Shown in pieces: positions 24,476 through 45,042 of a stretch of DNA of 64,000 nucleotides. Where the stretch lies: the NCBI GenBank assembly GCA_965276665.1, contig OZ255620.1, forward strand, positions 2,726,291 to 2,790,290, written 5' to 3'. Origin of the DNA: Acetobacteraceae bacterium (GTDB lineage Bacteria > Pseudomonadota > Alphaproteobacteria > Acetobacterales > Acetobacteraceae). A program made the position numbers and the translations under genes. Each line of letters begins with the position of its first letter. Position 1 is the first letter of the stretch. Below the pieces are notes generated by a model that was given only the letters and a program-made list of their open reading frames with translations, was not told the origin of the DNA and searched no databases.

Positions 24476-25186
24476 ATGGCGGTGAGCAAGGTGTTCCCGA
24501 GCGCGGGCGAGGCACTCGCCGATCTGCTGCGCGACGGCATGACGATCATGTCCGGCGGGTTCGGCCTTTGCGGCATTCCCGGCGCGTTGATCGAGGCGAT
24601 CCGCGCCTCCGGGACGAAGGATCTCACCTGCATCTCCAACAATGCCGGCATCGACGATGCCGGCCTCGGCCTGCTGCTGCAGACCCGCCAGGTGCGCCGG
24701 ATGATCAGCTCCTATGTCGGCGAGAACGCGCTGTTCGCGCAGCAATATCTCGACGGCGTGCTGGAGATCGAGTTCAACCCGCAAGGCACGCTCGCCGAGC
24801 GCATCCGCGCCGGGGGTGCCGGCATACCCGCCTTCTTCACTCGCACCGGCGCCGGCACCGAGGTCGCCCGCGGCAAGGAGGAGCGCGAATTCGACGGCGT
24901 GCGCTACGTGATGGAGCGCGCGCTGTTCGCCGATCTCGCGATCATCCATGCCTGGAAGGCCGATACCGAGGGCAACCTCGTGTTCCGCAAGACGGCGCGG
25001 AACTTCAACCCGATCATGGCAACGGCCGCCAAGGCAACGGTGGTGGAGGTGGAGCATTTAGTGGAGCCGGGCACGCTCGACCCGGACCACATCGTCACCC
25101 CCGGCATCTTCGTCCAGCGCATCGTCAAGCTCGACCGCGTGGAGAAGCCCATAGAGCGGCGGACGACGCGCAAGCGCGCGGCTTGA
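24476..25186 (+). CDS. scoA: 3-oxoacid CoA-transferase subunit A
   Basis: 236 aa; [15 protein letters not shown] motif. Confidence 0.9.
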
Positions 25187-25244
25187 GGAAGGCCAGGCGG
25201 CGAAACCCTCGGCCCGGTTCGAAACCCGCTTCAAGGAGGCCGCA

Positions 25245-25895
25245 ATGCCCTGGACCCGCGACCAGATGGCCGCCCGCGCCGCGCAGGAATTGCGCGACGG
25301 GTTCTACGTCAATCTCGGCATCGGCATCCCGACGCTGGTGGCGAACCACATTCCGTCCGGCATGACGATCCAGCTGCATAGCGAGAACGGCATGCTGGGG
25401 ATGGGCCCGTTCCCCTATGAGGGCGAGGAGGATGCGGACGTCATCAATGCCGGCAAGCAGACGGTGACCGAGCTCCCCACCACCAGCTTCTTCGACAGCG
25501 CCGCCTCCTTCGCGATGGTGCGGGGCGGCCATATCGGTCTCTCCATCCTGGGCGCGCTGCAGGTGGCCGAGAACGGCGACCTCGCGAACTGGATGATCCC
25601 CGGCAAGATGGTGAAAGGGATGGGCGGCGCGATGGACCTCGTCGCCGGCGTTCCCCGCGTGGTGGTGCTGATGGAGCATGCGGCCCGCGACGGCACGCCC
25701 AAGATCCTGAAACGCTGCACCTTGCCGCTGACCGGTGCCGGGGTGGTGAACCTGATCGTCACCGATCTCGGCGTGCTGGACGTGGGCGATGACGGCCTGA
25801 CCCTGGTCGACATCGCCCCCGGCGTCACGGTGGGCCACCTCCGCGCGCAAACCGAGGCAAGCTTCAAAATACACCCCGACCTGTCACCGTCTTGA
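25245..25895 (+). CDS. scoB: 3-oxoacid CoA-transferase subunit B
   Basis: 216 aa; [14 protein letters not shown] and SENG catalytic-Glu region. Confidence 0.9.
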
Positions 25896-25933
25896 TCCCC
25901 CGCCCGACAGCGGGCTATATGCGCCACCCGCAC

Positions 25934-26009
25934 GGGGCCATAGCTCAGTTGGGAGAGCGCCTGAATGGCATTCAGGAGGTCAGGGGTTCGACTCCCCTTG
26001 GCTCCACCA
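25934..26009 (+). tRNA. tRNA-Ala (anticodon GGC), CCA encoded
   Basis: Hand-folded cloverleaf: acceptor GGGGCCA/TGGCTCC with the G3:U70 Ala identity pair, anticodon loop atGGCat, T-arm ggggttcgactcccc. Confidence 0.95.
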
Positions 26010-26065
26010 TCGCCCGCCCCTAAGTGTCTGAAATGTCTTGTGTGTAGATTGCCATTTCGGGCGCA

Positions 26066-26086
26066 GCATACGTTTTGGCATACGTT
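26066..26086 (+). repeat. Tandem GCATACGTT x2, candidate integrase arm-type site (attL side)
   Basis: gcatacgttttggcatacgtt; near-identical to 37749..37769. Confidence 0.55.
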
Positions 26087-26179
26087 CGTCTCGCTTTTTG
26101 GGGTGCTTGCGAAGTCGATCCCTCGGGGTGGCGAGGCAGTGCTATCCGTTCACCGCGCCCCACCGCATACAACTCCTGC

Positions 26180-26665
26180 ATGTCCCGCACGCGCCCCACC
26201 GTCCCCGCCCCCCCTGCAATCCGCCCCGTTGTCCCGCCGGCCCGCGGTCGGCCGCGCAAGGGCGAGATCGACGCGGACGCCATCCGCGCGCTCGCTGCGC
26301 TCGGGTTGAATGCAACGACCATTGCAGCGCGGCTCGGGTTATCCCGTAGAACGCTGTTCGAACGGCTGGCCGAGGATCCGGTCGCGCGCGCAGCATACGA
26401 TGTGGGGTTGGCCGATCTGGTCGCCACGGCCGGCGCAAAGCTGCGCGAGCTGATCGAGCAGGGCAACGTTGCGGCGGTCATTTTCACGCTGAAAACAAAA
26501 GGGGGCTGGCTTACGCCGCGCGAGGCGTCACCGGCGCTACCGGACGGTGGACCGGTGATCGACGCGAGTGTTGTGTACAGGGGCGGCGAGGCGCAGCGGG
26601 TGCTCCGTGAACGGCATGCGTTGGCGCTCGAGCACGGATTGGATCAGGGTGACGACAACGACTGA
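26180..26665 (+). CDS. HTH protein resembling phage small terminase subunits
   Basis: GRPRKGE..., HTH LNATTIAARLGLSRRTLFERL, and NVAAVIFTLKTKGGW, which resembles the IFWLKNR motif of TerS proteins; start at internal ATG 26180. Confidence 0.5.
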   Translation: MSRTRPTVPAPPAIRPVVPPARGRPRKGEIDADAIRALAALGLNATTIAARLGLSRRTLFERLAEDPVARAAYDVGLADLVATAGAKLRELIEQGNVAAVIFTLKTKGGWLTPREASPALPDGGPVIDASVVYRGGEAQRVLRERHALALEHGLDQGDDND

Positions 26666-27062
26666 GCTCGCGGTCGCAGAGCTAAGCACTCGTTCGATTG
26701 GTGAACTGGCATCATCCGGGCCCGTGCCGGCGCATCGAGGGGGCAGGCAATTCGTTCTCCGCCATGCATCGCGAAAATACTCCGTGGGCCATGGTCATCT
26801 GCCTGACTTGCAGGTGCGCCGAAGCGTGTCCCAGCCCGATCACGCGGTGGACGCCGCAGCCGCAATCCACTGCCACGTAGTGATCGCGCATCGTGCCGAC
26901 GAACGAGGCGAGGACGAGGGCTCGATCGTAGAGAGGCTCTCGCATGTAAGGAACGTATAGTGAACATAGGCTCGAGTCGAGTCCTAGGACTTACGCGCCG
27001 GCGACGGATCGAGGCGGCGGTGGCGGTGCCGGCGACGGCCCATTTTGCCGCCGGCATAACTG

Positions 27063-27635
27063 TTACGCCCGCAGCTCACCCGAAATACGTTCCGTGAGAA
27101 GGACATGTTCCTTGAAGGTGGCCAGCGCCAAAGTGGCAAGGTGCTGCCCCTGCAACTCCGCCATCTCGCTCGTGTCCTTCGAAGCGTTCTTCAAGTAGGC
27201 GGTGGCAAGCGCGCGCAGGAACTTGTGATTTTCGACCTGGGCCGTGATGTAGTCGCGATCGAAAGCCGCACCTTCATGGGCATTCGTGATCTTGGCCAAG
27301 GTTGCTTGCGCCATCGAGTCGGGCGCCGGCACGGGAGTGCCAAGCTCTTTGAGGACGGTGGTCACAGCGATAGCCTCCGTGAGCTCGAAACCCGCGAATT
27401 CCTTCACCATCGGGTTAGTGGCCCGCTCGACTGCGATCTTGCTAGTGGCGAGCGATAGCTCGGCAGGTCCGATCACGCCCGCGGCGAATTCCTTCGCGGT
27501 TCGAACGCCGGATACGTCCGGCATCGTCGGCGTCTCGGAAGCCTCCCGCGGTGACGACTGAGCCATGGCCGTGGCAATAGGAGCCACTGCCAGCGCGGCG
27601 GCGCTGGCCAGTACGGAACGTCGGTTCGTGAACAT
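27063..27635 (-). CDS. DUF4142 domain protein with signal peptide (island cargo)
   Basis: FDRDYITAQVENHKF motif shared with the paralogue at 44476..45042 (FDRDYVRSQISDHQ). Confidence 0.8.
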   Translation of the reverse strand: MFTNRRSVLASAAALAVAPIATAMAQSSPREASETPTMPDVSGVRTAKEFAAGVIGPAELSLATSKIAVERATNPMVKEFAGFELTEAIAVTTVLKELGTPVPAPDSMAQATLAKITNAHEGAAFDRDYITAQVENHKFLRALATAYLKNASKDTSEMAELQGQHLATLALATFKEHVLLTERISGELRA

Positions 27636-27845
27636 CTTCTGCTTTCTGGTAAGGCCATCGGCGGGATGCCGCGGCCGCCGGCACTCGCTTGCCTAAAGAC
27701 CGATGTTAAGCCGAAGTTCCTCTCCTAGTGTCGTGGTTCACGGGACGGCGCCTGTTTGTGGATTGTGCTCGTACTTATTTTTAGGGTATTATGTAGTTGA
27801 CAAACACGGCTAGCATGATAGGATTTCGGTTAAGGAGCCAAGCCG

Positions 27846-28766
27846 ATGTCCTTCCTGTCCGTCCCTTACTTCCACGACGAAGCCGCAGCCTACGCGGAGC
27901 TTGAGGCAACGCTGTGGCCGCATGGCCCCGTATGCCCGCGCTGCGGCGGGATGGATCGGATCACGGCCGTTAAGGGTGGCCGCATCGGTCTGTATCGCTG
28001 CGGCCCGTGCAAGCGCCAATTCACGGTCAAGGTCGGCACGGTTTTCGAGTCCAGCCATGTGCCGCTGAACCTGTGGCTGCAAGCGGTCTATCTGATGTGC
28101 AGCAGCAAGAAGGGCATTAGCAGTCACCAGCTCATGCGCATGCTCGACGTGCAATACAAGACGGCTTGGTTCATGACGCATCGCATTCGCGAGGCGATGA
28201 AGGATGGCAGCCTGTCGCCGCTGGGTGGCGCTGGCGTGACGGTCGAAATCGACGAGACCTTCATCGGCACAAAATACAAGAAGCCGGAAGGTGCTCGCGG
28301 CTATGCGCACAAGAACGCGGTTATGACGCTCGTGCAGCGTGGCGGCTCTGCGCGCTCCTTCCATGTTGACGGCACGAAAGCGAGCGATCTGCTTCCGATC
28401 ATCAAGGCGAACGTCGCGCCCGGCACGCACGTGATGACCGATGAGGCCGGTCAGTATGCGCATCTGAATAAGCACTTTGCGGCGCACGATTTCGTCCGCC
28501 ACGGCGCCGAGGAATACGGTCGCGGCCCGATCCACACGAACACCGTGGAGGGGTTCTATTCCGTGTTCAAACGCGGAATGAAGGGTGTGTATCAGCACTG
28601 CGCCGAGAAGCACCTGCACCGCTACATCGCGGAGTTCGATTTCCGGTATAATAACCGTTCCGCGTTCGGCGTGAACGACACTCAGCGCACGGCAAGCGCG
28701 CTGCGCCGTATCGTCGGCAAAAGGCTGACCTATCGAGGGCCTAATTCAGCCAAATCGGCGCAATAG
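27846..28766 (+). CDS. IS1595-family (ISXO2-like) transposase
   Basis: N-terminal zinc ribbon CPRCGG...CGPCKRQF and DDE region VEIDETFIG...MTDE...NTVEGFYS. Confidence 0.85.
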   Translation: MSFLSVPYFHDEAAAYAELEATLWPHGPVCPRCGGMDRITAVKGGRIGLYRCGPCKRQFTVKVGTVFESSHVPLNLWLQAVYLMCSSKKGISSHQLMRMLDVQYKTAWFMTHRIREAMKDGSLSPLGGAGVTVEIDETFIGTKYKKPEGARGYAHKNAVMTLVQRGGSARSFHVDGTKASDLLPIIKANVAPGTHVMTDEAGQYAHLNKHFAAHDFVRHGAEEYGRGPIHTNTVEGFYSVFKRGMKGVYQHCAEKHLHRYIAEFDFRYNNRSAFGVNDTQRTASALRRIVGKRLTYRGPNSAKSAQ

Positions 28767-29035
28767 ATCATCCAAGTGAACGACGATCAGGAAGGCTCTC
28801 TTCCTGACGCGTTCGTGGACATCGTCAACGCATATCTGGCGGCGCCCAAGGTCTGTTCCGTTCGGATGGGGTGGCGCGAGAATCGGCAGCACGCAGACTA
28901 CGCGCGGGCACAGATGAGAATCTTTTGCCCCGCCATGCCGCGTGCGCGCGGGCGTGTCGTACTAATCTCGCACAAATACTACTTCCCGCGGAAGTACAGC
29001 TTCACCTTACTATTACGAACAACGCGCATCGCTAG

Positions 29036-29863
29036 GCTCAGGACCCTTTACGCGGCTTGATGAGGTGTGATTCTGGGGGGTCGGAGGTGGTGCATGTCCG
29101 ACCTTGTTCTGCTGTCGCGGGCGCAGATGCGCCGCATCGAACCGTTCTTTCCCCACTCTCGCGGCTTGCCGCGCGTTGACGACCGACGAGTGATCAGCGG
29201 GATCATCTACGTGATCCGGCACGGCTTGCAGTGGAAGGATGCGCCGCGCGGCTACGGCCCACCCAAGACGCTTTACAACCGGTTCATCCGCTGGAGCCGC
29301 CTCGGCGTGTTCGCCCGTATCTTCGCGGCACTTGCGGGCGCGGCTGACACGCCGGAACGACTAATGATCGACGCCACCCACCTGAAGGCGCACCGGACCG
29401 CCGCGAGCCTGCTCCAAAAGGGGCTCTTTCCCGTTGCCTCGGGCGAACCAAAGGCGGCCTGAACTCCAAGCTGCACGCGGTCTGTGACGGCGAGGGGCGG
29501 CCCCTCCTGCTGCTGCTCACCGAAGGCCAGATGAGTGATCACCGCGGCGCTGCGATGATGCTGCCCGCATTGCCGCCAGCACGCGAACTGCTCGCCGATC
29601 GTGGGTACGACAGCAATCGCTTCCGCGCCGGACTGGCCGCGCGGGGCATAGCCCCGTGCATCCCATCCACCAAAAACCGCAAGGCCCCGCTGCCCTACGA
29701 CAAGCTGCTCTATCGACAGCGCCACCGCATCGAGAACATGTTCGGCCGCCTCAAGGACTGGCGACGTGTGGCGACCCGCTACGACAGATGCGCTCACACC
29801 TTCTTCTCAGCCATCTGCATCGCAGCCGCCGTCACATTCTGGCTCTGATACAGAGTCCTGAGC
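29036..29863 (+). mobile_element. IS5-family (IS427/IS1031-like group) insertion sequence, ~0.83 kb
   Basis: Terminal inverted repeats gctcaggac / gtcctgagc flanked by CTAG on both sides (2-4 bp target duplication); two-frame transposase inside. Confidence 0.85.
29094..29848 (+). CDS. IS5-family transposase, orfA-orfB joined by a probable programmed -1 frameshift near 29414-29421 (ccaaaagg)
   Basis: orfA 29094..29462 (DDRRVISGIIYVIRHGLQWKD); the -1 frame continues KGALSRCLGRTKGGLNSKLHAVCD...ADRGYDS...RHRIENMFGRLKDWRRVATRYD. Confidence 0.85.
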
Positions 29864-30086
29864 CTAGCTTAGATGTTGGGCCTCGAAGGAGCCACAAGAA
29901 TCCTTTAAGCCGCGCGTCTATTCAAAGCACACACTGGTCCTTCTACCCATGCGATACTGTTCTTCCGGATCAAAGAGAGCAAATGCATGCGTTGTGGCTT
30001 GTGGAATTCTTCGAAAGGTGTAACATAGACTTCCGCTCACGGTACGAGCGGCCTGTGCATGACGTGGAGCAACCAGAGTTGCCGCT

Positions 30087-30845
30087 ATGGCCCGGATCGT
30101 AACGCCCCAGGATGTCGAGCACGCCGCGCGCTCGCTTGTTGAGGCGCGGGCGAGCAGTATGGGCATAGAGGTGACTACACCGATCTTGCACGCAAACGGC
30201 GACTTCGTTGAGGTGATCGTTGTTCCCGGCGTTGATGGGTTTGCTGTGCATGACGCAGGGCTCGGTAGCATGCGTCTGTCCGCAGAAGGCATGAGGACGG
30301 GTGGCGATGCCGCAATTCGGATGAGACTTGCGGCAGAGCGGTATGATTGCTTAGTTGAGGGAGGGCGGATCGTTAGGCGTTGCTCCGATGAGGCGGAACT
30401 CGCAGTTTCGATCGCGCTTGTGGCTAATGCGACCAGAACTGTCGGAGACTTTGCGGCCGAGGTTCGGCGCCAGAACGACAGCCAGTTTAGATTCGTACTG
30501 ACGGAGCGCATTCGTGAGATCGCCGGGCCGCGCCTGAGAGAGAACGAGGCCTTCAAGGGCCAAAGCGGGCGCATTTATCGCGTTCCAAATGTCATCCTAG
30601 ACAAACAGCTCTCCCTGCCCCCGGTCTTTGCTGTGCCGGTGGCTTCTCGCAGTTCTGTTCCGTTCCAATTCCGAGAATTGTTTGATCTCAAGGCAGCGTT
30701 CCCCCTTATCAGGAACGATAGCGTTTACAATGATGCTGGGGATTTTCGTCCTGATGAGGACGGGTGGATTCTCGGCCAGGTCGGTGAAGTCACTCCGTTT
30801 TCGGACCTCCCAAAAAGGCTCCCCGAGTTGTTGGAGACGGCATGA
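30087..30845 (+). CDS. Hypothetical two-domain protein (252 aa); layout resembles DUF1828/DUF1829 proteins
   Basis: ORF; start overlaps the upstream restored ORF; N-terminal pattern HANGDFVEVIVV..FAVHDAGLG and C-terminal FKGQSGRIYRVPNVIL recalled from those families (unverified). Confidence 0.65.
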   Translation: MARIVTPQDVEHAARSLVEARASSMGIEVTTPILHANGDFVEVIVVPGVDGFAVHDAGLGSMRLSAEGMRTGGDAAIRMRLAAERYDCLVEGGRIVRRCSDEAELAVSIALVANATRTVGDFAAEVRRQNDSQFRFVLTERIREIAGPRLRENEAFKGQSGRIYRVPNVILDKQLSLPPVFAVPVASRSSVPFQFRELFDLKAAFPLIRNDSVYNDAGDFRPDEDGWILGQVGEVTPFSDLPKRLPELLETA

Positions 30846-31009
30846 CGGATTCGAAGAAGTCGCAACGCGACCGCTTCATCGAAACCGCGCGCCAACTTGG
30901 TGCGGACGAGAACGAAGCCGCGTTCAAGGAGAAGCTGGCGGTGATCGCGCGGCAGAAGCCGAAGGACGCGCCGAAACCGCAGAAACCGCAGGACAAGCGT
31001 GGTGGTTAA
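30842..31009 (+). CDS. Small protein (55 aa), helical N-terminus plus Lys/Pro-rich tail
   Basis: Not in the ORF track (under 60 aa); hand-translated MTDSKKSQRDRFIETARQLGADENEAAFKEKLAVIARQKPKDAPKPQKPQDKRGG; ATGA overlap with the upstream stop. Confidence 0.5.
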   Translation: MTDSKKSQRDRFIETARQLGADENEAAFKEKLAVIARQKPKDAPKPQKPQDKRGG

Positions 31010-31202
31010 GGTCTGGAAAACCGGACAGGGAGACGATTTCACCTGTCCTCATTGTGGAGCGATCTATTCGGTCCACATCACGCGTCTTCCCGTCCGAGAG
31101 CGTGAAACCGAGACATGCGCTGTTTGCAAACGGGTCATGTACGAAGCCAATTCGACGGAGAGCAAGATATTCAGCCTCTCAAAGCGGCCAGACGCACTAT
31201 AG
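30999..31202 (+). CDS. Small zinc-ribbon protein (67 aa)
   Basis: CPHCG ... CAVCK four-Cys motif; GTG start overlaps the preceding sORF by 11 nt. Confidence 0.55.
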   Translation: MVVKVWKTGQGDDFTCPHCGAIYSVHITRLPVRERETETCAVCKRVMYEANSTESKIFSLSKRPDAL

Positions 31203-31271
31203 GACTTCTTGCCTAGGCCGGCGCGTTGTGTTTGCGAAGTGCATAATCTCCTATTTTTAAGGTGCGGAAAA

Positions 31272-31420
31272 GCCCCCCTATGCCCCCCTGTGCACCCTAT
31301 GGTTTTCCGTCCGTGCGCTATACGCAGTGCTTGTGTCCTGTCACCTAAGCGAGGATTCAAATCTTTTTAGATTTTCTAAGGGAAAAAAGCATAGGGGCGC
31401 GTAGGGGGTCATAGGGGGGG
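31272..31420. repeat. Inverted iteron clusters (3 + 3 copies of CCCYRYG-type units) flanking an AT-rich spacer; candidate island replication origin
   Basis: gcccccctatgcccccctgtgcaccctatgg (31272-31302) versus cataggggcgcgtagggggtcatagggggg (31390-31420); spacer contains aaatctttttagattttctaagggaaaaaag. Confidence 0.55.
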
Positions 31421-31437
31421 AGGCAAAGCCGGTGCCC

Positions 31438-34135
31438 TTACGACCGCGCGAGGAAATACGAAGCGACCGCCCACTTGCCGCCGCCTTTCGATTTTACCAG
31501 CACCCAGCCGCCGGCGTGAGTTCCCACCAACGCCGCGAGCCTCGCCACCAACGCCTGCCTGTTGCTGCCGTCCCAACTAAACTGGACAACGACATCATCG
31601 TGCAGGTCGGCCGCCTTCACGGGGGCAACGCCATGGTGAGCGTGCCAACACGCGAAGGCTTCCGCGATCCGAGCACGCACCGGATCATTGCTCTTTGCTT
31701 CTTGGACTCTGTCGACCGGATCCCGGCAGCCGAGCGCCAGCAGGGGGTCCCGGACCCACTCCGCCCATGCTTCGTATGAGCCAAGCGGCCTGCCCTTTGG
31801 CAGATGCGACTGTCGGCCCCACCTCCAAATCGTCAGAAGCGCCGACAGCAGATCTTCGCGGCGAGGCAGCAGCGATTGCACGAAGTTTGGTGCGAACGGC
31901 CGGTTTTCGGGGTCGGGCGTGCGCGCGTCGAGTGCGCAGTGCACGAAGCGTCTCGCGAGGTCTTCCGACACGCTAAGGCCATTCCCGGTGATGGCGACGA
32001 AGGCCGTCGAGTTGAGGCGCGCCATCTCGCTCCGACCGAGGAGGCGCACCTTCGCGGGGTTTTCAGTGAGCACGGACGCCAGGGCGTCACTGCGCAACTG
32101 CCTGCCATTCACGTTAATCGAGGAAGACCGCAGGCTCAGCCTCTAGCAGGGCGGCGACAATGCGCTTTTCCAGCTCGGCAAGATCGGCGCCGGCCGTAAA
32201 TGCCTGCGGCGATCGTCCGAAGGCGACGGCGCAGATGGCGCGTACGAGCAAGCCTTTCCCAACGGACGACCCTGAAATTTCGGGGGCGTGCACGAGAAAG
32301 CCCGGCGCCAGATCGATGCTCGGCCGCACCACCGCGGTGAGAAGACCGCAGAGCAAGGCGCTCTCGTCCTGGCCAGGGTCCACCCGCACGTCGGTCACGT
32401 CCACACCTAACGTCGCCTCGTGCACGCGCTCGGCATCGGCGACGGCGAACGTGCGGAAGGCATGGCGAATGGAATGGAGCGCGATCAGCGCGTCTCCTTC
32501 GTCTGGCCGATCGGGCACTTGGACCGACACGCCGGACGCGCACCACAATTTGGTTATTGGGTCATAACCGCAGGCGTGTCGAATGGAACCGTCATCTGCC
32601 AGCAGCGGACCGAGGGCGAAGCCGTGCAGAGCGGGGAGGTGCCAGTCGCCGCGCATCGCTAGATATAATTTCGCCACGCGATCCGGCAGCGTCGTGCTCT
32701 TCGGGCCGTCCTTCCCGATCGCCATCGGACGACAAATCCGGTGCGCCTCTATTACGGCGCGGTCGGCCCCAAGATGGTGCACCTCCGGAAAGCCGTCGGC
32801 GTTCCGGACGACAACCACCGGTTTGTCGCGCTCAAACAAGTTGCCGGCCGCGGCCAAAGCATCTCGCGGGCGCTCCGCAGTTTCGGGGAGGTCTCCGTTG
32901 TCGACGATCAAGTCCGGCCGCGCATGCCGCTTGCGCAACTCCGGCGGCATCGGCTCGACCGTGTCGGCGAACTCTTCCTGCGCCTCCGCCATTCGGATTT
33001 CACGAACCGCGCGCAGATAGTGGCCCGTGTCGGCTCCGGCCTCCTCGGCCCACTCGAGGATGTCCGCTGTGCCGACAAAAAAAGGCGGCGCAAGCGAATT
33101 AAAAGTTCGCTCTGCCTCGGTCGAATCGCCGCCGCGGTGATACCTGCCGTCGAACTCGATGTAGAGTTCGCGAGCCATCTCGAGGTGCTGGGGCAGCGCT
33201 GCTTTAAGTGCGCACCCGATCTTTACGTACCCGCTGTCCCGCTCATCAAAACGGCCGTCGTTCTGGATTTGGCGGAACAGGTCGGCGAGCGCGTCAGGAG
33301 CGACAGCAGCAAGGAAGCGCTGATCCGGCGCGCCGTCAGGGAAGGACAGAACGGCTGCGCCACGCACCTTCTCCGTCGCGGTTCGCTGCGGAGTCGAGCG
33401 CTCTACGACTTCGGCAATGCGTGGCGGCACAGTCACTTCCGCTTCGCCTGGTAGTTCGACGAACCGCGCCGGGCAGGGGTCTTCGACGCCGTTCAGGGCT
33501 GGGGCCGCCGTGTAGATCGGCGTCACATCGTTGAAGAGAGAGTGGTCTACGGGGGAGTCAACGAACCACTCTCTCAACGCCTCGCGGCCAAGCGGAACGT
33601 TCATCCAAAACCAGAACCGCAGTCGGGCACCATCCTTGAAACCATGGGAACCGGACGCGCTGACGAAGCATCGCGCCGCGCGGAACTCTGCCGGAAGCAG
33701 CGGTAGAACTACCTTGCCGCATGCTGCCACGTCGGCCCGGTCGGTCCCGGCGGGCAGTGCGACGCCGTCCAGATCTATGGCGACCCAGCGGTGCGGGGCC
33801 GGCTCGAGCGTCGGCGCATTCCCGTCCTTTTGGTGCAAAAGGCGTCTCGCATTCTCGGCTCGCTCCGCGCCGATGAGCTTCCCGCGCACGACCATGACAT
33901 GCCGACGAGACTGCAGCTTCTCGAGCAGGCGCCCGAGATCGTCGAAGCTCTTTAGCGGGCGGGTGGCGATCGTGAAGAAGGTCGCCGAATCGTAGCCCTT
34001 TACGCCTTCGGGCGAGACGCGCTTTGCAAGGACCTTGCCCTCCGTAGAGGCGAGCAGCGTGATGAAGTCGCCGGCCCGCTCCGGCGCCGGCGAAGTCGCG
34101 CAGGGATCGGCAGTTGCTTCGGTCGCGGCGGACAT
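31438..34135 (-). pseudogene. Primase-helicase-like replication protein (P4-alpha/VirE-like P-loop NTPase) split by a frameshift at ~32112
   Basis: ORFs 32114..34213 and 31438..32112 abut; ...EPAVFLD-stop then (I)NVNGRQL in the adjacent frame; deleting one T restores FLDNVNG (Walker B-like); GSSVGKG P-loop upstream. Confidence 0.7.
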
Positions 34136-34139
34136 CGAA

Positions 34140-34382
34140 TCAGCTCTCGTGTCCGGCGAGCAATGCGCGAACCGAAGCCATCTCGACCAGGGCGCGCTTG
34201 CCCACTTTCGCAAATCGGACGCGACCTTCCGCTCGGAGGACGTAGAGGTGGGACCGCGAAAGGCCGAAGTGGCTGCACGCGTCCGGCACGGCCGCGAATT
34301 CAGCGTGCGCGAGCGCCGCGGGATCGGGCTTGCGGCGCTCGCGGCGCGTGCGGTGGTCGGCGGTAGTCTGGGTGGTGGACAT
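34140..34382 (-). CDS. AlpA/excisionase-type HTH transcriptional regulator
   Basis: 80 aa; FGLSRSHLYVLRAEGRVRFAKVGKRALV motif; directly upstream of the replication gene. Confidence 0.8.
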   Translation of the reverse strand: MSTTQTTADHRTRRERRKPDPAALAHAEFAAVPDACSHFGLSRSHLYVLRAEGRVRFAKVGKRALVEMASVRALLAGHES

Positions 34383-34501
34383 GACGGGAAACCTCGGGTC
34401 GTTGCTGGACCCAGAAAGGCAAATTTTCTAACTCACAAAAACGTTCGTCTGCGATTTCGGCCGAACTTTATTTCTTCGCGTGGGGATTGATTGTGAGTTA
34501 A

Positions 34502-34969
34502 TCACATGATCTCGCGCGCGTTCGCATCGGCTACGAGAACACGCCCTCGCCGCGGCTTCGCTTCGGGTGGAATCCGAAACTGCTGATCGCAGACGACACA
34601 ATTCAACAAATTCACGAAGGCGGATGGATGTAGCGGCACCCGGAAACCGAAGTCCCTCATTAGGAGGGAGAGGCGCCAATCGTCAGTCAGCGTGGTGCCA
34701 GACACTGCCCAATAAACAAAACTGCCGTCGCGGTGGTCGCGCCACTGCAGGAGGAGCCCGACGCGCCCACCGCGCTCGTCTACGAGCTCGCCGACAACAT
34801 CCAGCGCGTCGGCGATTCGCTCGGGCGGGGGTTGCCACCACAACCCCTCAGCGGCAGCGCAATAGAACTCGGCGGCCAGCGGGGCTGGCGGGGTGATGCG
34901 GCTCGAGACGGGGCGCCCTTCTATTAGCGTGCCGATCTCGTCGACGGGGAAAGTGAGAATGTGCGTCAT
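34502..34969 (-). CDS. Hypothetical protein (155 aa)
   Basis: ORF only; no family recognised. Confidence 0.5.
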   Translation of the reverse strand: MTHILTFPVDEIGTLIEGRPVSSRITPPAPLAAEFYCAAAEGLWWQPPPERIADALDVVGELVDERGGRVGLLLQWRDHRDGSFVYWAVSGTTLTDDWRLSLLMRDFGFRVPLHPSAFVNLLNCVVCDQQFRIPPEAKPRRGRVLVADANAREIM

Positions 34970-35097
34970 GGGAACTCCTAATGTGGAGCCCGCAACTTGC
35001 GCTTACTGTGCGATCGGAAACCTGCTAGAAGGAATTTCCAACGTCCCTTCATGCTGCTTTTCGAAACCGCCCGTGGCGCCCGCTACGGGCGGTTCGT

Positions 35098-35334
35098 TTA
35101 CGCGGTCGGCAAGGTGGCGAAGTACGTGGCGAATGCAGTTGCGTCGACCAGCACGCGTCGCCCGATCCGGCGAGCGAGCAGACGACCGGCGGCGATTTCG
35201 CGGCGGATAGATTTTGGTGAGACGCCGGCGCGCCGGGCGGCAGCGGTGACCGAAATGCCGAGTGCGTCAGGCGCGGCGGTAAGCGATGGTGCGGCGGTCG
35301 CGGGCATGGGGCCTCGCAGGGCTAGAGGGGACAT
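35098..35334 (-). CDS. Excisionase-family HTH DNA-binding protein
   Basis: ISVTAAARRAGVSPKSIRREIAAGRLLARRIGRRVLV pattern typical of the excisionase/MerR-like HTH_17 family. Confidence 0.7.
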   Translation of the reverse strand: MSPLALRGPMPATAAPSLTAAPDALGISVTAAARRAGVSPKSIRREIAAGRLLARRIGRRVLVDATAFATYFATLPTA

Positions 35335-35386
35335 GACGATCCCCGAATAGCCGCACGTTCCCGCTGGCCCTATAGCGCGCTCCGGC

Positions 35387-35674
35387 TCACCACCGCGCGG
35401 GCGGATCCGCCCGCAACGTCCCTGCGGCCCGATCGTCGGGGCTGCGCATCGCCGGCTCGGCCGGTGCAGTCCGGGCCGGCGGGCGCGCGCCTCCGTCTGA
35501 CGGCGCCATGGCGGCGAGCACGATGCCGAGGCTGAGTATCGCGAGGATCATGATCCCATGCAGGCCGAGGAGCCAAAGAAAGAACACCGCGCCCAGCGCG
35601 ATCGCCGAGACGACCCTGTTCAGGGTGGCAAGGGCGGCTGGCAGGAGTGCCAGAAACACGATCGGGGCGAGCAT
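35387..35674 (-). CDS. Small membrane protein (95 aa, ~2 TM)
   Basis: Hydrophobic N-terminal 55 residues; ORF only. Confidence 0.45.
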   Translation of the reverse strand: MLAPIVFLALLPAALATLNRVVSAIALGAVFFLWLLGLHGIMILAILSLGIVLAAMAPSDGGARPPARTAPAEPAMRSPDDRAAGTLRADPPARW

Positions 35675-35813
35675 CGCCTAAACCTTTGAAAAATTCTGCA
35701 AAATTTCGCGCGATGGCTGCGCTGGTCGCAGCCGGGTAGCCCCGCTTCCTCCCCACCCCCGGCACCCCCATTGGGGTGATCTTCCTTTACAGAAGACCAC
35801 CCCAATGGGCTTA

Positions 35814-36287
35814 CTATGCCAATCGCATCTGCTCGATCATGCGCGCGCTCTCGACCTGTTCGGCAGCGACTATCTCGGCGATCTCGCTCGTCCTGCGCGT
35901 GTGCGCCTCGCCGAAGGCCGCAAAAGACTGCATATCAAAGGCCAAAATCCGTTGTGCGAGGTGCACCGCGAAAATGCACTGCATGCGTTCCGGGGCTACA
36001 GCATTGATAATAGGCTGCACTGTGGCCAGCCGGGCGGTGTCAAGATCCGAGAGGGGGCTGTCGCGTAGGACGGGTTCGCTGAGGACGCGCTCCGTGGCCT
36101 TCTGCATGAGGGCCAAGATGGCGCCGGCCCCTTTGTCTCCTGCACACAGCAGCGCCTGCAGCCGGGCGTGCTGTGTGCGCATGAGGTTGACGTAGGCAGG
36201 CACATCAACCGGGACTCGAAGTGCCCCAGCGTCGATCGTGGACACTGGCGGCGCTAATACTGTATTGGTGGTATCGCCTTCAGGCAT
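35814..36287 (-). CDS. Hypothetical protein (157 aa)
   Basis: ORF only; no family recognised. Confidence 0.5.
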   Translation of the reverse strand: MPEGDTTNTVLAPPVSTIDAGALRVPVDVPAYVNLMRTQHARLQALLCAGDKGAGAILALMQKATERVLSEPVLRDSPLSDLDTARLATVQPIINAVAPERMQCIFAVHLAQRILAFDMQSFAAFGEAHTRRTSEIAEIVAAEQVESARMIEQMRLA

Positions 36288-36490
36288 GTTCGGGTCCTCT
36301 TATCCGTGGCAACGTGCCGGATGGCACGGCGCAGCCCAGTGATTCGCCCACTGGGTTGCGCCAATTATTGCACAAAACGATCAAGACATCAAGCTATTAC
36401 TGTATTGACCATTGGCTAGATTAGAGACATTTGCGCTCATCGAAACTTATATATGATTGGACTGCAGCATATTGCTCGTGGCTGCATCCT

Positions 36491-37735
36491 TTAGCTTACC
36501 TCGCGGCGGATCGTCGTGACGTTGTCGGCGGCGGCAGCGTCTGGCGCTGGACGCCTGCAGAACACGGCCCATTCGGCCATGAGTCGGCGGCGCCGCTCGA
36601 ACAAGTCGGATCGCCGGTAGGCCGCCTCCACCTGATCGGCGATGGTGTGCGCGAGGGCCGCTTCAGCCACTTCGCGCGAGTAGGCGGTGGTGTCGGCGAC
36701 CCAATCGCGAAAGGTGCTGCGGAAACCATGCACGGTTATGCTGTCGCGCTCCATCCGGCGAAGCACTGCCGACATCGCCATGTCACTGAAGGGCTTCCCG
36801 GCGCGCGTGCTCGGGAAGATCCAATCACCGCGCTTCATGTCGCGTAGTGGGGCCACGGCGCGCAGCACCTCGCACGCTGCGTCGGACAGCGGGACACGAT
36901 GCCCGATGCCGGCCTTCATGCGCTCGCCGGGCACGGTCCATACGGCCTTGACGAAGTCGATTTCGCCCCAGGTCGCGCCGATCACCTCTCCGGTCCTGGC
37001 AGCGGTCAGCACGGTGAACTGCAGGGCCATTGCAGCAATCCCGCCGTGCTTCCGGAGCTCGGCCATAAACGCGCCAACGTCCGCCCAGGGCAGGGCCGGA
37101 TGATGAGCCACGCGGACTAGGCGGGAAGGGCGGGCCAATAAGTTGGACAAATGACCGCGCCACCGCGCGGGGTTTTCGCCGTCACGCCATCCGCGCGCCT
37201 TCGCGAAGTCCAAGACGAGCTCGATACGGCCGCGCAGCCGCGAGGCGGTTTCCGTCTTCGTCGCCCACATCGGTTCCAGGACGCTCGTGACATCTCCGGT
37301 GGTGATCGCGGCAACCGCCTTGTCGCCGAACACGGCGTTGGCGAGGGCGAGTGTCTGGCGCCACTGGTAGCGGTGTTTGGCATTGCGCCAGCTCGGCTCG
37401 TGGGCCGCAATGTATAAGTCGGCCACCTCGCGAAAAGTCCTCCCGATCTTCGCACCAGCCGCTGCCTCGCCCTCTTGGGCGCGGCGCCGCTCGAGCGGGT
37501 CAATGCCTTGCCGCAGAAGTTTCCGGCACTCGCCTGCCGCCTCCCTGGCCTCTGCCAATGAGAGTTGCTCGGTGCTTCCCAGACCCATGAGGCGCGCCTT
37601 GCCGTCGATGACGAACCGGAAGAGCCAAGACTTCGCCTCGGGCCCGCGCACCTGCAGCAGGAGATTGCCGCCGTCACTGTATCGGCCTGGCTTCGCCAGC
37701 TTCTCGACCTTAAGCGCGGTGAGCTTCGTGGCCAT
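36491..37735 (-). CDS. Tyrosine recombinase, P4-type integrase (DUF4102 arm-binding N-terminus)
   Basis: LTALKVEKLAKPGRYSDGGNLLLQV N-terminus; catalytic region TAARTGE...HGFRSTFRDW...LAH...Y. Confidence 0.95.
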   Translation of the reverse strand: MATKLTALKVEKLAKPGRYSDGGNLLLQVRGPEAKSWLFRFVIDGKARLMGLGSTEQLSLAEAREAAGECRKLLRQGIDPLERRRAQEGEAAAGAKIGRTFREVADLYIAAHEPSWRNAKHRYQWRQTLALANAVFGDKAVAAITTGDVTSVLEPMWATKTETASRLRGRIELVLDFAKARGWRDGENPARWRGHLSNLLARPSRLVRVAHHPALPWADVGAFMAELRKHGGIAAMALQFTVLTAARTGEVIGATWGEIDFVKAVWTVPGERMKAGIGHRVPLSDAACEVLRAVAPLRDMKRGDWIFPSTRAGKPFSDMAMSAVLRRMERDSITVHGFRSTFRDWVADTTAYSREVAEAALAHTIADQVEAAYRRSDLFERRRRLMAEWAVFCRRPAPDAAAADNVTTIRREVS

Positions 37736-37748
37736 CCATCCAAATCCA

Positions 37749-37769
37749 GCATACGTTCTGGCATACGTT
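37749..37769 (+). repeat. Tandem GCATACGTT x2, candidate integrase arm-type site (attR / int promoter side)
   Basis: gcatacgttctggcatacgtt, 14 nt upstream of the integrase start; matches 26066..26086. Confidence 0.55.
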
Positions 37770-37888
37770 TACACGATGGATTGGGCTGCACAAGTCGAAA
37801 CGAAGCTGGACGGCTACTTCGATATTATCAGTGTCTATAAGGGGATTTCTGGACACAGCCGAACAAGCCTGGATGACCGTTTGGCGGA

Positions 37889-37902
37889 CCTTGGCTCCAC
37901 CA
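37889..37902 (+). repeat. attR core: duplicate of the tRNA-Ala 3' end
   Basis: ccttggctccacca is identical to 25996..26009. Confidence 0.8.
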
Positions 37903-39717: not shown

Positions 39718-39907
39718 ATTTCTCCAAATCTGCCGGCCCGGAGCCCGCCGATCCCTCGTCACCCGGCTCCTCGTCTTCCGCGCCGATCTCTCGGCGCGCT
39801 TGATGCCAGTGCTCCTCGGCCTGTCCCTCGGTCCGGCCGTTCTGCTCCCAGAGCTCGTAGGCACGCTCCCGGATGCGTTCCTCGCGTGACTTGGCTTGAC
39901 CAGACAT
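39704..39907 (-). CDS. DUF2934 domain protein (tandem paralogue)
   Basis: EERIRERAYELWEQNGRTEGQAEEHWHQA signature; 14-nt overlap with the downstream paralogue. Confidence 0.75.
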   Translation of the reverse strand: MSGQAKSREERIRERAYELWEQNGRTEGQAEEHWHQARREIGAEDEEPGDEGSAGSGPADLEKYGAD

Positions 39908-44475: not shown

Positions 44476-45042
44476 CTAGTGAGACGTGTGATGGGTGGCA
44501 CGTCGCGGCATCGGCGCCGGCAGCAGGGCCTGCGCCGCCGAGAGATGCGACTGCAGCTGCGGCAGCGCCTGGTTGGCGAAGTTCTTCACGTCCGGATCGC
44601 TGCCATCGGTCGTTTCACGCTGGAACAGCGCGATCGTCGCCTGATGGTCGGAGATCTGGCTGCGGACGTAGTCGCGATCGAAGATCACGCCGCGCTCGCG
44701 CTGCAGCCTGGCGAGGATGGCCTGGTGCGCCGGGTCGAGATCGGTCGGCAGCGTCACGTTCTTCGTCTGCGCGAGCTGCATCAGCTGCTGGTTCAGCGCC
44801 GTGTGGTCGGTGACCATCTGCTGCGCAAAGCTCTTCACCGCCGGGCGCGCCGCCTTGGTGGAGGCCAGCTGTCCGAACTGCACCTCGGCCATGCCGCCGA
44901 GGGCTGCCTGGTTGAAGAACGTCGTATCCGTCTGGCTGATCGGCGGCGGCGCCGGCGCGGGCGGCGGCGGGGGCGACGGGCTCGAGCATGCGGCGACGGC
45001 GAGCACCAGCGCGGCGCCGCCCCAGCGGAAAACAGGGTTCAT
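44476..45042 (-). CDS. DUF4142 domain lipoprotein
   Basis: Lipobox LAVAAC; FAQQMVTDHTALNQ and FDRDYVRSQISDHQ repeats. Confidence 0.8.
   Translation of the reverse strand: MNPVFRWGGAALVLAVAACSSPSPPPPPAPAPPPISQTDTTFFNQAALGGMAEVQFGQLASTKAARPAVKSFAQQMVTDHTALNQQLMQLAQTKNVTLPTDLDPAHQAILARLQRERGVIFDRDYVRSQISDHQATIALFQRETTDGSDPDVKNFANQALPQLQSHLSAAQALLPAPMPRRATHHTSH

Follow-up and report, generated by a model that had tools for sequence, protein, structure and literature searches.

An 11.9-kb integrative element at tRNA-Ala(GGC) of an Acetobacteraceae bacterium resembles minimalist phage satellites and carries a broken replication gene

We analysed a window of 64,000 nucleotides from an Acetobacteraceae bacterium (assembly GCA_965276665.1, contig OZ255620.1, positions 2,726,291 to 2,790,290) and found that positions 26010–37902 of this window are a site-specific integrative element of 11.9 kb in the 3′ end of tRNA-Ala(GGC). 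The island is bounded by attachment (att) repeats and combines an integrase, two excisionase-like genes, a frameshifted primase gene and an iteron region, in a backbone that recurs in relatives. The reading we favour, with a probability of roughly 0.6, is that of an integrative, self-replicating, probably helper-packaged element that is now degenerate. A satellite lifestyle is suggested by the architecture and is not established. The analysis also yields two useful by-products, a conserved iteron signature for a large replication-protein family and evidence for tRNA-Ala(GGC) as a hot spot of integration in this species.

The integration target and the att cores are the following.

25934–26009, plus strand: tRNA-Ala(GGC), the integration target, whose 3′ end forms attL (ARAGORN, Rfam, divergence of contig L001)
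25996–26009, plus strand: attL core, 14-bp direct repeat CCTTGGCTCCACCA (repeat search)
37889–37902, plus strand: attR core, second copy of CCTTGGCTCCACCA (repeat search; the following 4 bases are as in L001)

This tRNA gene is the single one in the window (ARAGORN; Rfam, 66.9 bits), and the Rfam scan of the window returned no other RNA. CCTTGGCTCCACCA is identical to the last 14 bp of the tRNA and is present in exactly two copies in the window, even when one mismatch is allowed; two copies were obtained in 0 of 100 dinucleotide-preserving shuffles. GC content between the repeats is 62.5%, as compared with 68.5% in the left flank. With 3 mismatches allowed, the number of att-like matches was at chance level and no internal copy stood out, which gives no sign of a tandem composite island. 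The sequence-only reading that preceded this work had proposed an 11.9-kb island at tRNA-Ala bounded by an exact 14-bp duplication, and both the repeat search and the comparison below bear it out. Its assignment of the host to the Alphaproteobacteria was likewise upheld, the best matches to the flanks (81–83%) being Alphaproteobacteria and Acetobacteraceae metagenome-assembled genomes.

The left junction could be compared directly with a close relative. An ENA metagenome contig, L001 (ERZ26858887 ctg186260), encodes the same CoA-transferase B subunit as the left flank of the window; its DNA is 99.9% identical to positions 25096–26012 and diverges right after tRNA-Ala into a different element. 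Because so close a relative switches element at the tRNA end, the left junction is a genuine point of insertion that varies between strains. tRNA-Ala(GGC) is thereby marked as an integration hot spot in the species, which explains the strain-variable 11.9-kb segment. The four bases that follow the tRNA in L001, GCGT, also follow the attR copy in the window, which is weak evidence that 37903 onward may be the original chromosomal flank. The L001 element (L001 915–10800) is phage-like, encoding a DUF3987 primase, a resolvase and a large terminase, and might even serve as a candidate helper-type phage of this species.

Just inside the att cores lie an integrase gene and paired repeats, followed by two small genes encoding helix-turn-helix (HTH) proteins.

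36491–37735, minus strand: apparently intact tyrosine integrase of 414 aa, domains arranged as in the P4 family (Pfam, catalytic motifs)
26064–26086, plus strand: putative arm-type sites by attL, two copies of GCATACGTT 12 bp apart (23-nt repeat D12)
37747–37769, plus strand: putative arm-type sites between the integrase start codon and attR, two copies of GCATACGTT (23-nt repeat D12)
35098–35334, minus strand: HTH_17 gene, excisionase-like or recombination-directionality-factor-like (PF12728, 2.6e-6; phrog_7506, recombination directionality factor, 5.9e-6)
34140–34382, minus strand: second HTH_17 (excisionase/AlpA-clan) gene, directly upstream of the replication gene (PF12728, 3.2e-6)

The integrase matches Arm-DNA-bind_3 (PF13356, 2.5e-20), Phage_int_M (PF22022, 3.2e-27) and Phage_integrase (PF00589, 1.3e-15), all above cut-offs, and its catalytic R, HxxR and H...Y residues are readable in the translation as ARTGE, HGFRSTFRDW and AH..AY. 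More than 8000 homologues were found at E≤1e-30. The domain layout confirms the P4-type integrase that had been called at the attR end. The 23-nt block at 26064–26086, which sits 55 bp inside attL, is 96% identical to that at 37747–37769, in which the GCATACGTT copies lie at 37749 and 37761. The window holds four exact copies of GCATACGTT, all within the two island ends, and we read them as probable arm-type integrase sites. Taken together, the element lies between exact 14-bp copies of the tRNA 3′ end, a different element occupies the same site in a close relative, and an intact integrase with three Pfam domains and its catalytic motifs adjoins the att site, as looked for in a tRNA island.

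Both small genes, previously labelled excisionase/AlpA-type, proved to belong to HTH_17 (PF12728), and both just clear the Pfam cut-off (28.0 and 27.7 bits versus 27). The integrase-proximal one also matches TIGR01764 at 4.8e-5, below the family cut-off, while the one at 34140–34382 has tblastn matches in four related loci described below (L085, L147, L152 and L162).

The replication module occupies the next part of the island.

31438–34135, minus strand: primase/P-loop NTPase (putative helicase) gene, about 898 aa, pseudogene (PHROGs, motifs, alignment of homologues)
31272–31419, no strand assigned: putative replication origin, AT-rich spacer between two inverted iteron arrays (TRF, sequence, relatives)

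The gene starts at 34135, five bases past the 34140–34382 HTH_17 gene, as does the 673-aa database protein P0001, and is read in two frames, 34135–32117 and then 32112–31441 (minus strand). The break reads gat-T-aac-gtg, where homologues have an invariant Asp-Asn pair (D673-N674) of the Walker B motif, VFLD|N, and is accounted for by a 1-bp insertion near 32113–32116. Similarity to phrog_29234 is continuous across it, with profile positions 241–615 before the break and 621–787 after. Since the insertion falls in Walker B, we conclude that this is one gene of about 898 aa truncated inside its NTPase site. No long homopolymer surrounds the extra base, and the same stop terminates the public protein record; a sequencing error stays formally conceivable.

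In its N-terminal part (residues 49–251 of the long open reading frame [ORF]), the protein matches phrog_16950 ‘DNA primase’ at 7e-19 and phrog_3712 ‘replication origin binding’ at 1e-9, as well as the primase of Xylella phage Xfas53 at 7e-14. The motifs IDLD (DxD) and SGSHG are found here, which we take to resemble the DxD and sGxH motifs of archaeo-eukaryotic-type primases. The same domain is present on small non-mobilizable plasmids of Roseomonas and Skermanella, and on ParA-bearing plasmids. One of these, unnamed4 of Roseomonas mucosa (NZ_CP025065.1, 24,356 bp; loci L169 and L170), is small and non-mobilizable and encodes ParA, a site-specific integrase and a 1181-aa protein that shares the primase-like domain at 34% identity; an annotated terminase small subunit follows directly, and the record carries no annotated virion genes. 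The plasmid has the look of an Acetobacteraceae satellite or phage-plasmid-like replicon.

The C-terminal half carries a Walker A motif, GSSVGKG, and Walker B, with Walker residues that are invariant in homologues, and is the widely conserved part of the protein: a full HMMER pass over 1.84 billion cluster representatives returned 5,332 proteins at E≤1e-3 and 351 at the stricter E≤1e-30. Homologues carry Prim-Pol, PriCT_2, DUF927 or RepB_primase domains either fused to this module or ahead of it, and in locus L119 Prim-Pol (5e-30) is encoded by a gene of its own immediately upstream. The replication protein itself has no Pfam or NCBIfam match, and searches of PDB sequences, with a profile as well as with each half of the protein, gave noise only. 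A primase plus replicative NTPase is nonetheless well supported by these similarities, and motifs and domain architecture suggest that the NTPase is a helicase. The primase and the iterons of the ‘primase-helicase-like gene’ in the sequence-only reading are therefore substantiated, with the helicase part resting on motifs and architecture.

Directly downstream of the stop codon, TRF detected two arrays with a 10-bp period and about three copies each, GCCCCCCTAT at 31272–31301 and the complementary GCATAGGGGG at 31389–31419. The 87-bp spacer between them has a GC content of 42.5%, and its last 39 bp only 28%, in a window of 68% GC. This arrangement recurs in relatives, which is the strongest new finding of the analysis. 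Downstream sequence was long enough in 65 related loci; in 43 of them, the 450 bp 3′ of the homologous gene contain three or more CCTATG/CATAGG hexamers, typically 9 bp apart and in two clusters. Hexamer density is 7.3 per kb downstream of the gene versus 0.28 per kb in the rest of the loci, a 26-fold enrichment. Because of its enrichment in 43 of 65 loci, the repeat is a conserved cis element that travels with the replication-protein family, and we interpret the region as a putative origin. SaPI origins consist of iterons flanking an AT-rich region immediately 3′ of pri-rep; the island shares with the SaPI replication module an initiator gene followed by two iteron sets around an AT-rich spacer, although proteins and repeat sequences are unrelated.

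Relatives were collected by a replication-protein profile search of JGI metagenomes, which found 483, mostly in soil samples; 80 loci were retrieved. Their shared gene order is integrase, HTH_17 gene, primase/NTPase gene and CCTATG iterons, the same as in the conserved backbone of the window island, which runs on the minus strand from 37888 to 31260 and comprises the integrase, small genes including the two for HTH_17 proteins, the primase/NTPase gene and the iteron origin. An integrase gene lies 2–3 kb upstream of the replication gene on the same strand in 17 of the 80 retrieved loci (23 by ORF clustering over all related loci), with 48–52% identity to the window integrase in L091, L095, L096 and L147. 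In 23 loci, a member of the ORF family to which the 34140–34382 HTH_17 gene belongs sits just ahead of the replication gene. Seven loci have a tRNA gene immediately before the integrase, and in several loci a tRNA is no more than 1.3–2 kb away from where the replication gene ends.

Complete elements were recovered for two relatives. L129 extends over 6.6 kb from a tRNA-Leu to a 16-nt repeat and carries a sulfotransferase; L119 extends over 7.8 kb from a tRNA-His to a 46-nt repeat, its integrase lying at the opposite end from the intact tRNA, a polarity shared with the window island. No virion-gene family was found among the scanned ORFs of either. As complete relatives measure only 6.6 and 7.8 kb, the small, structure-less form is native to the family and not the stump of a prophage. 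Three relatives are in IMG/VR viral contigs, and one of these, L085, is inside a true phage: on this 81-kb viral contig an HTH_17-replicase-CATAGG iteron module is followed by genes for terminase small subunit (TerS), terminase large subunit (TerL) and portal. The module is therefore common to true phages and small elements. The presence of relatives in viral contigs is the sole indirect pointer to helper-dependent induction and encapsidation. Among the related loci, proteins matching the TerS, TerL and portal of L085 were found in L085 only, other terminase and portal families lying outside this search.

The gene closest to attL may bear on packaging.

26180–26665, plus strand: HTH gene, 161 aa (database protein P0153), weakly TerS-like (phrog_309, fold)

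The small-terminase-like call made earlier for this gene is a weak one. The protein matches the TerS profile phrog_309 at 8.6e-6 with partial cover and a Psychrobacter phage TerS over 86 aa (33% identity, E 7e-3); no terminase family was found in Pfam or NCBIfam, where Pfam gave sub-threshold generic HTH matches only, and BLASTP revealed no similarity to the TerS proteins of phage L085 and of the Roseomonas plasmid. In an AlphaFold2 (AF2) model based on seven close homologues, residues 31–90 (pLDDT 87–90) are predicted to form a three-helix HTH, a long helix and a β-hairpin. The top Foldseek match in PDB was phage Sf6 TerS gp1 (E 0.69, probability 0.87), with phBC6A51 and SPP1-like TerS at lower ranks and none significant. 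Among the top 50 matches in BFVD, all those with functional names were TerS or phBC6A51-type/homeodomain-like HTH proteins (best E 4e-4). The protein thus seems TerS-like in fold; it lies outside the conserved backbone and may be accessory.

Based on these features, the following life cycle can be proposed. The element's own arm-binding tyrosine integrase would insert it at tRNA-Ala(GGC), duplicating 14 bp, and the integrase together with an HTH_17 directionality factor would excise it as a circle. Excision should produce the attP junction TTTGGCGGA-CCTTGGCTCCACCA-TCGCCCGCCCC (…GGCGGA-CCTTGGCTCCACCA-TCGCCCG…) and a repaired attB in which tRNA-Ala is followed by GCGTGCTCGATG. The replication protein would bind CCCCTATG-type iterons, melt the AT-rich spacer and prime replication. 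As had been noted from the sequence, no capsid, tail or lysis family was matched by any island ORF in Pfam, PHROGs or NCBIfam; nor did the scanned ORFs contain a relaxase, a coupling protein, type IV secretion genes or a recognisable oriT, leaving room for a cryptic oriT. Since the element has no virion, lysis or conjugation genes, copies would need outside help to leave the cell. The likeliest route is in helper-phage capsids, as for PICMI, phage-inducible chromosomal islands (PICIs), VEIMEs and PICI-like tycheposons, and the TerS-like gene at the attL end may take part in packaging. Excision, iteron binding, helper dependence and packaging by phage are all steps that we infer from gene content and arrangement. 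The copy in the window is degenerate, because of the Walker B frameshift and two insertion sequence (IS) elements in its accessory half, in keeping with the decay suspected earlier; it can probably excise but no longer replicate alone.

Several results weigh against a helper-packaged element. An empty site was recovered neither among GTDB representatives nor by exact-junction and exact-protein look-ups. In the occupied-versus-empty comparison suggested by the sequence-only reading, the flanking CoA-transferase of GTDB representative genomes was only 81–83% identical, with no synteny, and these genomes are too distant. Exact att-junction searches in JGI metagenomes and IMG/VR gave no match, and exact-protein look-ups with the right-flank genes, the integrase and the primase gave no record. 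The right boundary is accordingly drawn from the repeat, the integrase and the putative arm sites only. The att junction was absent from the viral and metagenome collections searched, no related contig has terminal repeats indicating a circular form, and no helper phage was identified. The helicase assignment is without Pfam or PDB support. As to the TerS-like gene, its sequence evidence is weak and sub-threshold, and it was not found in any related locus. It has four paralogues in the source genome (P0154, P0155, P0156 and P0159, 69–82% identity), and neither the integrase nor the primase is multi-copy alongside it. The two paralogues inspected (L087 10001–10462 and L168 10001–10843) sit in IS-rich, non-phage regions that contain no integrase, primase, tRNA or arm sites.

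How do other explanations fare? That the segment is no mobile element at all, with a chance 14-bp repeat around ordinary chromosomal genes, would suit a repeat this short and the failure to recover an empty site. It is effectively refuted by the shuffles, in none of which two copies arose, by the identity of the repeat with the tRNA 3′ end, by an integrase and paired arm-type repeats just inside it, by a 99.9%-identical contig that diverges exactly at the tRNA end, and by the drop in GC across the segment. We also consider it improbable that the island is the remnant of a temperate phage that integrated at tRNA-Ala and lost its structural and lysis genes through internal, perhaps IS-mediated, deletions. 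Such a history would fit L085, in which HTH_17, primase/NTPase and CATAGG iterons precede TerS, TerL and portal genes, and it would fit the two IS elements exactly where late genes are expected, a TerS-like gene with no TerL, and the phage-like element at the same tRNA in a near-identical strain. Yet both att copies are intact, and the complete relatives are only 6.6 and 7.8 kb long with the same backbone and no virion family in their scanned ORFs. Among related loci, the L085 TerS, TerL and portal matched only L085 (within the limits of that search), several loci have a tRNA 1.3–2 kb from the end of the replication gene, and the IS5-family element, whose inverted repeats are intact and whose target may be duplicated, is a simple insertion and no deletion scar. 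The intact att pair and the complete relatives weaken this explanation, in line with the earlier preference for a satellite over a prophage.

Harder to set aside, though still unlikely in our estimate, is an integrative self-replicating cargo island that spreads independently of phages, a tycheposon-like shuttle or integrative plasmid moved by conjugative mobilisation, vesicles, natural transformation or generalized transduction. An integrase, xis and primase/NTPase are equally typical of cargo tycheposons, most of which have no packaging genes (bioRxiv 10.1101/2020.12.28.424599). The N-terminal primase domain does occur on ParA-bearing plasmids, cargo genes are present (DUF4142 here, the sulfotransferase in L129), and the weak TerS call concerns a gene outside the conserved backbone. 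Four observations speak against such an island: the searches turned up no relaxase, coupling protein or recognisable oriT; the HTH protein agrees in fold with phage TerS and not with other viral HTH proteins; IMG/VR viral contigs contain three of the relatives; and proven PICMI satellites have exactly this minimal gene set (PMC10803314).

The helper-packaged element that we favour has counterparts among published satellites. Elements with the same gene set have been described, including in Alphaproteobacteria (PMC9618062, PMC10803314, PMC10085698, bioRxiv 10.1101/2020.12.28.424599). PICMIs of Vibrionaceae have six genes in an int-alpA-prim arrangement, sometimes with two or three alpA copies, and their helper dependence was proven experimentally (PMC10803314). 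The window island resembles them in its integrase, integrase-adjacent gene, alpA/HTH_17 gene, small gene and primase, and in having no capsid-remodelling or virion genes; under the PICMI model, in which PF12728 is accepted for alpA, integrase and alpA are found together, whereas primase type and fis site are not (PMC10803314). PICMIs integrate downstream of fis, unlike the island in tRNA-Ala, and their primases belong to DUF3987 or DUF5906 (PF13148 or PF19263), neither of which is matched by the window protein; one of 21 replication-protein homologues touches DUF5906 at 7.8e-4. Their hosts are vibrios in which helper dependence was shown, whereas the present host is alphaproteobacterial and the island is known from its genes.

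VEIMEs combine an integrase, AlpA, a primase/helicase and TerS homologues with no capsid gene, and are reported to be integrated in Pelagibacter and other Alphaproteobacteria (PMC9618062), so that the earlier remark that satellites are mostly from Gammaproteobacteria and Firmicutes is out of date. VEIMEs and PICI-like tycheposons are like the island in their tyrosine integrase, excisionase/AlpA, primase/helicase and occasional TerS and in the absence of a major capsid gene, and tycheposons also integrate at tRNA genes (bioRxiv 10.1101/2020.12.28.424599). They differ in being marine and defined by virion recovery or integrase clades, whereas relatives of the window island are mostly from soil and known from sequence.

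Gram-negative PICIs share with the island a terminal integrase, an alpA-type regulator, a primase-replicase with an adjacent origin, the lack of tail and holin genes, and a size near the PICI median of 9.5 kb (PMC10085698, PMC6092414). Three of five PICI core components are firm, namely the integrase, the alpA/merR/stl-type regulator and the primase-replicase (PMC10085698). The capsid-morphogenesis component is lacking, in that no head or packaging family beyond the weak TerS match was found in PHROGs or NCBIfam, and the weakly TerS-like gene is on the opposite strand at the far end, unlike in PICIs. P4-like satellites are similar in their Arm-DNA-bind_3 integrase, tRNA site, AlpA-clan HTH, single large primase-NTPase and size of about 11–12 kb (PMC8628076, PMC10085698). 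Of the SatelliteFinder model for P4-like elements (int, psu, delta, sid, alpA, epsilon, alpha), the island has the integrase and alpA; Psu, Delta, Sid and epsilon are absent from the Pfam, PHROGs and NCBIfam matches of its ORFs. Its primase has AEP-like (archaeo-eukaryotic-type primase-like) motifs and no detected similarity to the P4 alpha type, with Prim-Pol taking this place in relatives, and would be a functional analogue only of P4 alpha. P4-like elements are, moreover, essentially confined to Enterobacterales (PMC8628076, PMC10085698). Membership of the P4-like family is ruled out by the lack of the psu-delta-sid operon and of an alpha-type primase. The proposal of a PICI or P4-like satellite therefore holds for the general likeness in gene content and size; it fails for P4 and reaches three of five components for PICI.

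A bolder view, which we regard as doubtful at present, is that the island is a damaged member of a widespread and as yet undescribed family of minimalist phage satellites that inhabit soil Alphaproteobacteria. Its members would be 6.6–12 kb in length and tRNA-integrated, with a CCTATG-iteron origin and a replicase that has no Pfam model (more than 5,000 cluster representatives), some of them with a divergent TerS that redirects helper packaging. What the relatives do establish is that a replication-protein family of 5,332 representatives with no Pfam model travels with a recognisable iteron origin and, in soil bacteria, makes up very small integrase-xis-replicase elements. Should these be phage satellites, they would extend the minimalist PICMI/VEIME type to terrestrial Alphaproteobacteria, and the iteron motif would offer a simple marker for them. 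The window copy is broken and a poor experimental model; intact relatives are worth studying.

The remaining features of the island are listed below, beginning with those in its accessory half (26010–31260).

27063–27635, minus strand: DUF4142 protein, 190 aa, cargo (Pfam PF13628, 9e-11)
27846–28766, plus strand: IS1595-family transposase, 306 aa (DDE_Tnp_IS1595, 2e-36; Zn_ribbon_IS1595, 5e-11)
29031–29868, plus strand: IS5-family element, 838 bp, orfA 29067–29462 and orfB 29531–29848 (DUF4096, 6.5e-22; DDE_Tnp_1_2, 8e-13)
30087–31009, plus strand: two-gene cassette, p252 at 30087–30845 and a 55-aa ORF at 30842–31009, with an ATGA overlap (translation)
34502–34969, minus strand: ORF of 155 aa (p155), no family match
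35387–35674, minus strand: possible small membrane protein, 95 aa, gene call uncertain (third-position GC 0.84, hydrophobic translation)
35767–35809, no strand assigned: palindrome just downstream of p157, 18-nt arms and 7-nt loop (inverted repeat I23, 94% complementary)
35814–36287, minus strand: ORF of 157 aa (p157) adjoining the integrase gene, no family match

No family match was obtained in Pfam, PHROGs, NCBIfam or PADLOC for p155 and p157, nor any family match for the 95-aa ORF, and p252, p157 and p155 had no match in 50,697 phage genomes. The palindrome at 35767–35809 could be a terminator or an operator. A promoter-like site lies upstream of p157 at 36392–36364, in a promoter/terminator scan that was at background level overall. 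For p252, weak full-length matches were seen to PADLOC PDC-M24B, a candidate defence protein (2.6e-4), and to phrog_1960 (7e-4); AF2 modelling from the single sequence reached a pLDDT of 34, and the 55-aa ORF of the cassette is rich in lysine and proline. PADLOC found just this match and a weak mad1 HTH match among the island ORFs.

The IS1595 element has no clear inverted repeats, and its ends were not located. Those of the IS5-family element are 20 nt long (29031–29050 and 29849–29868, I14) and 90% complementary; if they are read four bases shorter, a CTAG duplication flanks the element. A 94-aa ORF at 28776–29060, after the IS1595 transposase gene, runs into the left inverted repeat and was apparently truncated by the insertion. 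A second, distant DUF4142 paralogue (44542–44907), 28% identical to the island copy, is encoded in the chromosome some 7 kb beyond the right end of the island.

The IS-rich contexts of the two TerS-like paralogues inspected rule out these genes as markers of sister islands. One of the two has a defence-like cluster (BrxC/BrxD, TerB, DEAD helicase) beside it, and a 155-kb contig that is possibly circular, going by the _c at the end of its name, carries one. To the right of attR, a 14-mer at 39889 has 3 mismatches to the att core, which is chance level. The segment 37903–40850 has a GC content of 0.646 versus 0.70 beyond it; it has genes for a GNAT/FemAB-like protein, DUF2934, DUF892 and DUF6719 and may stem from an older acquisition at this hot spot.

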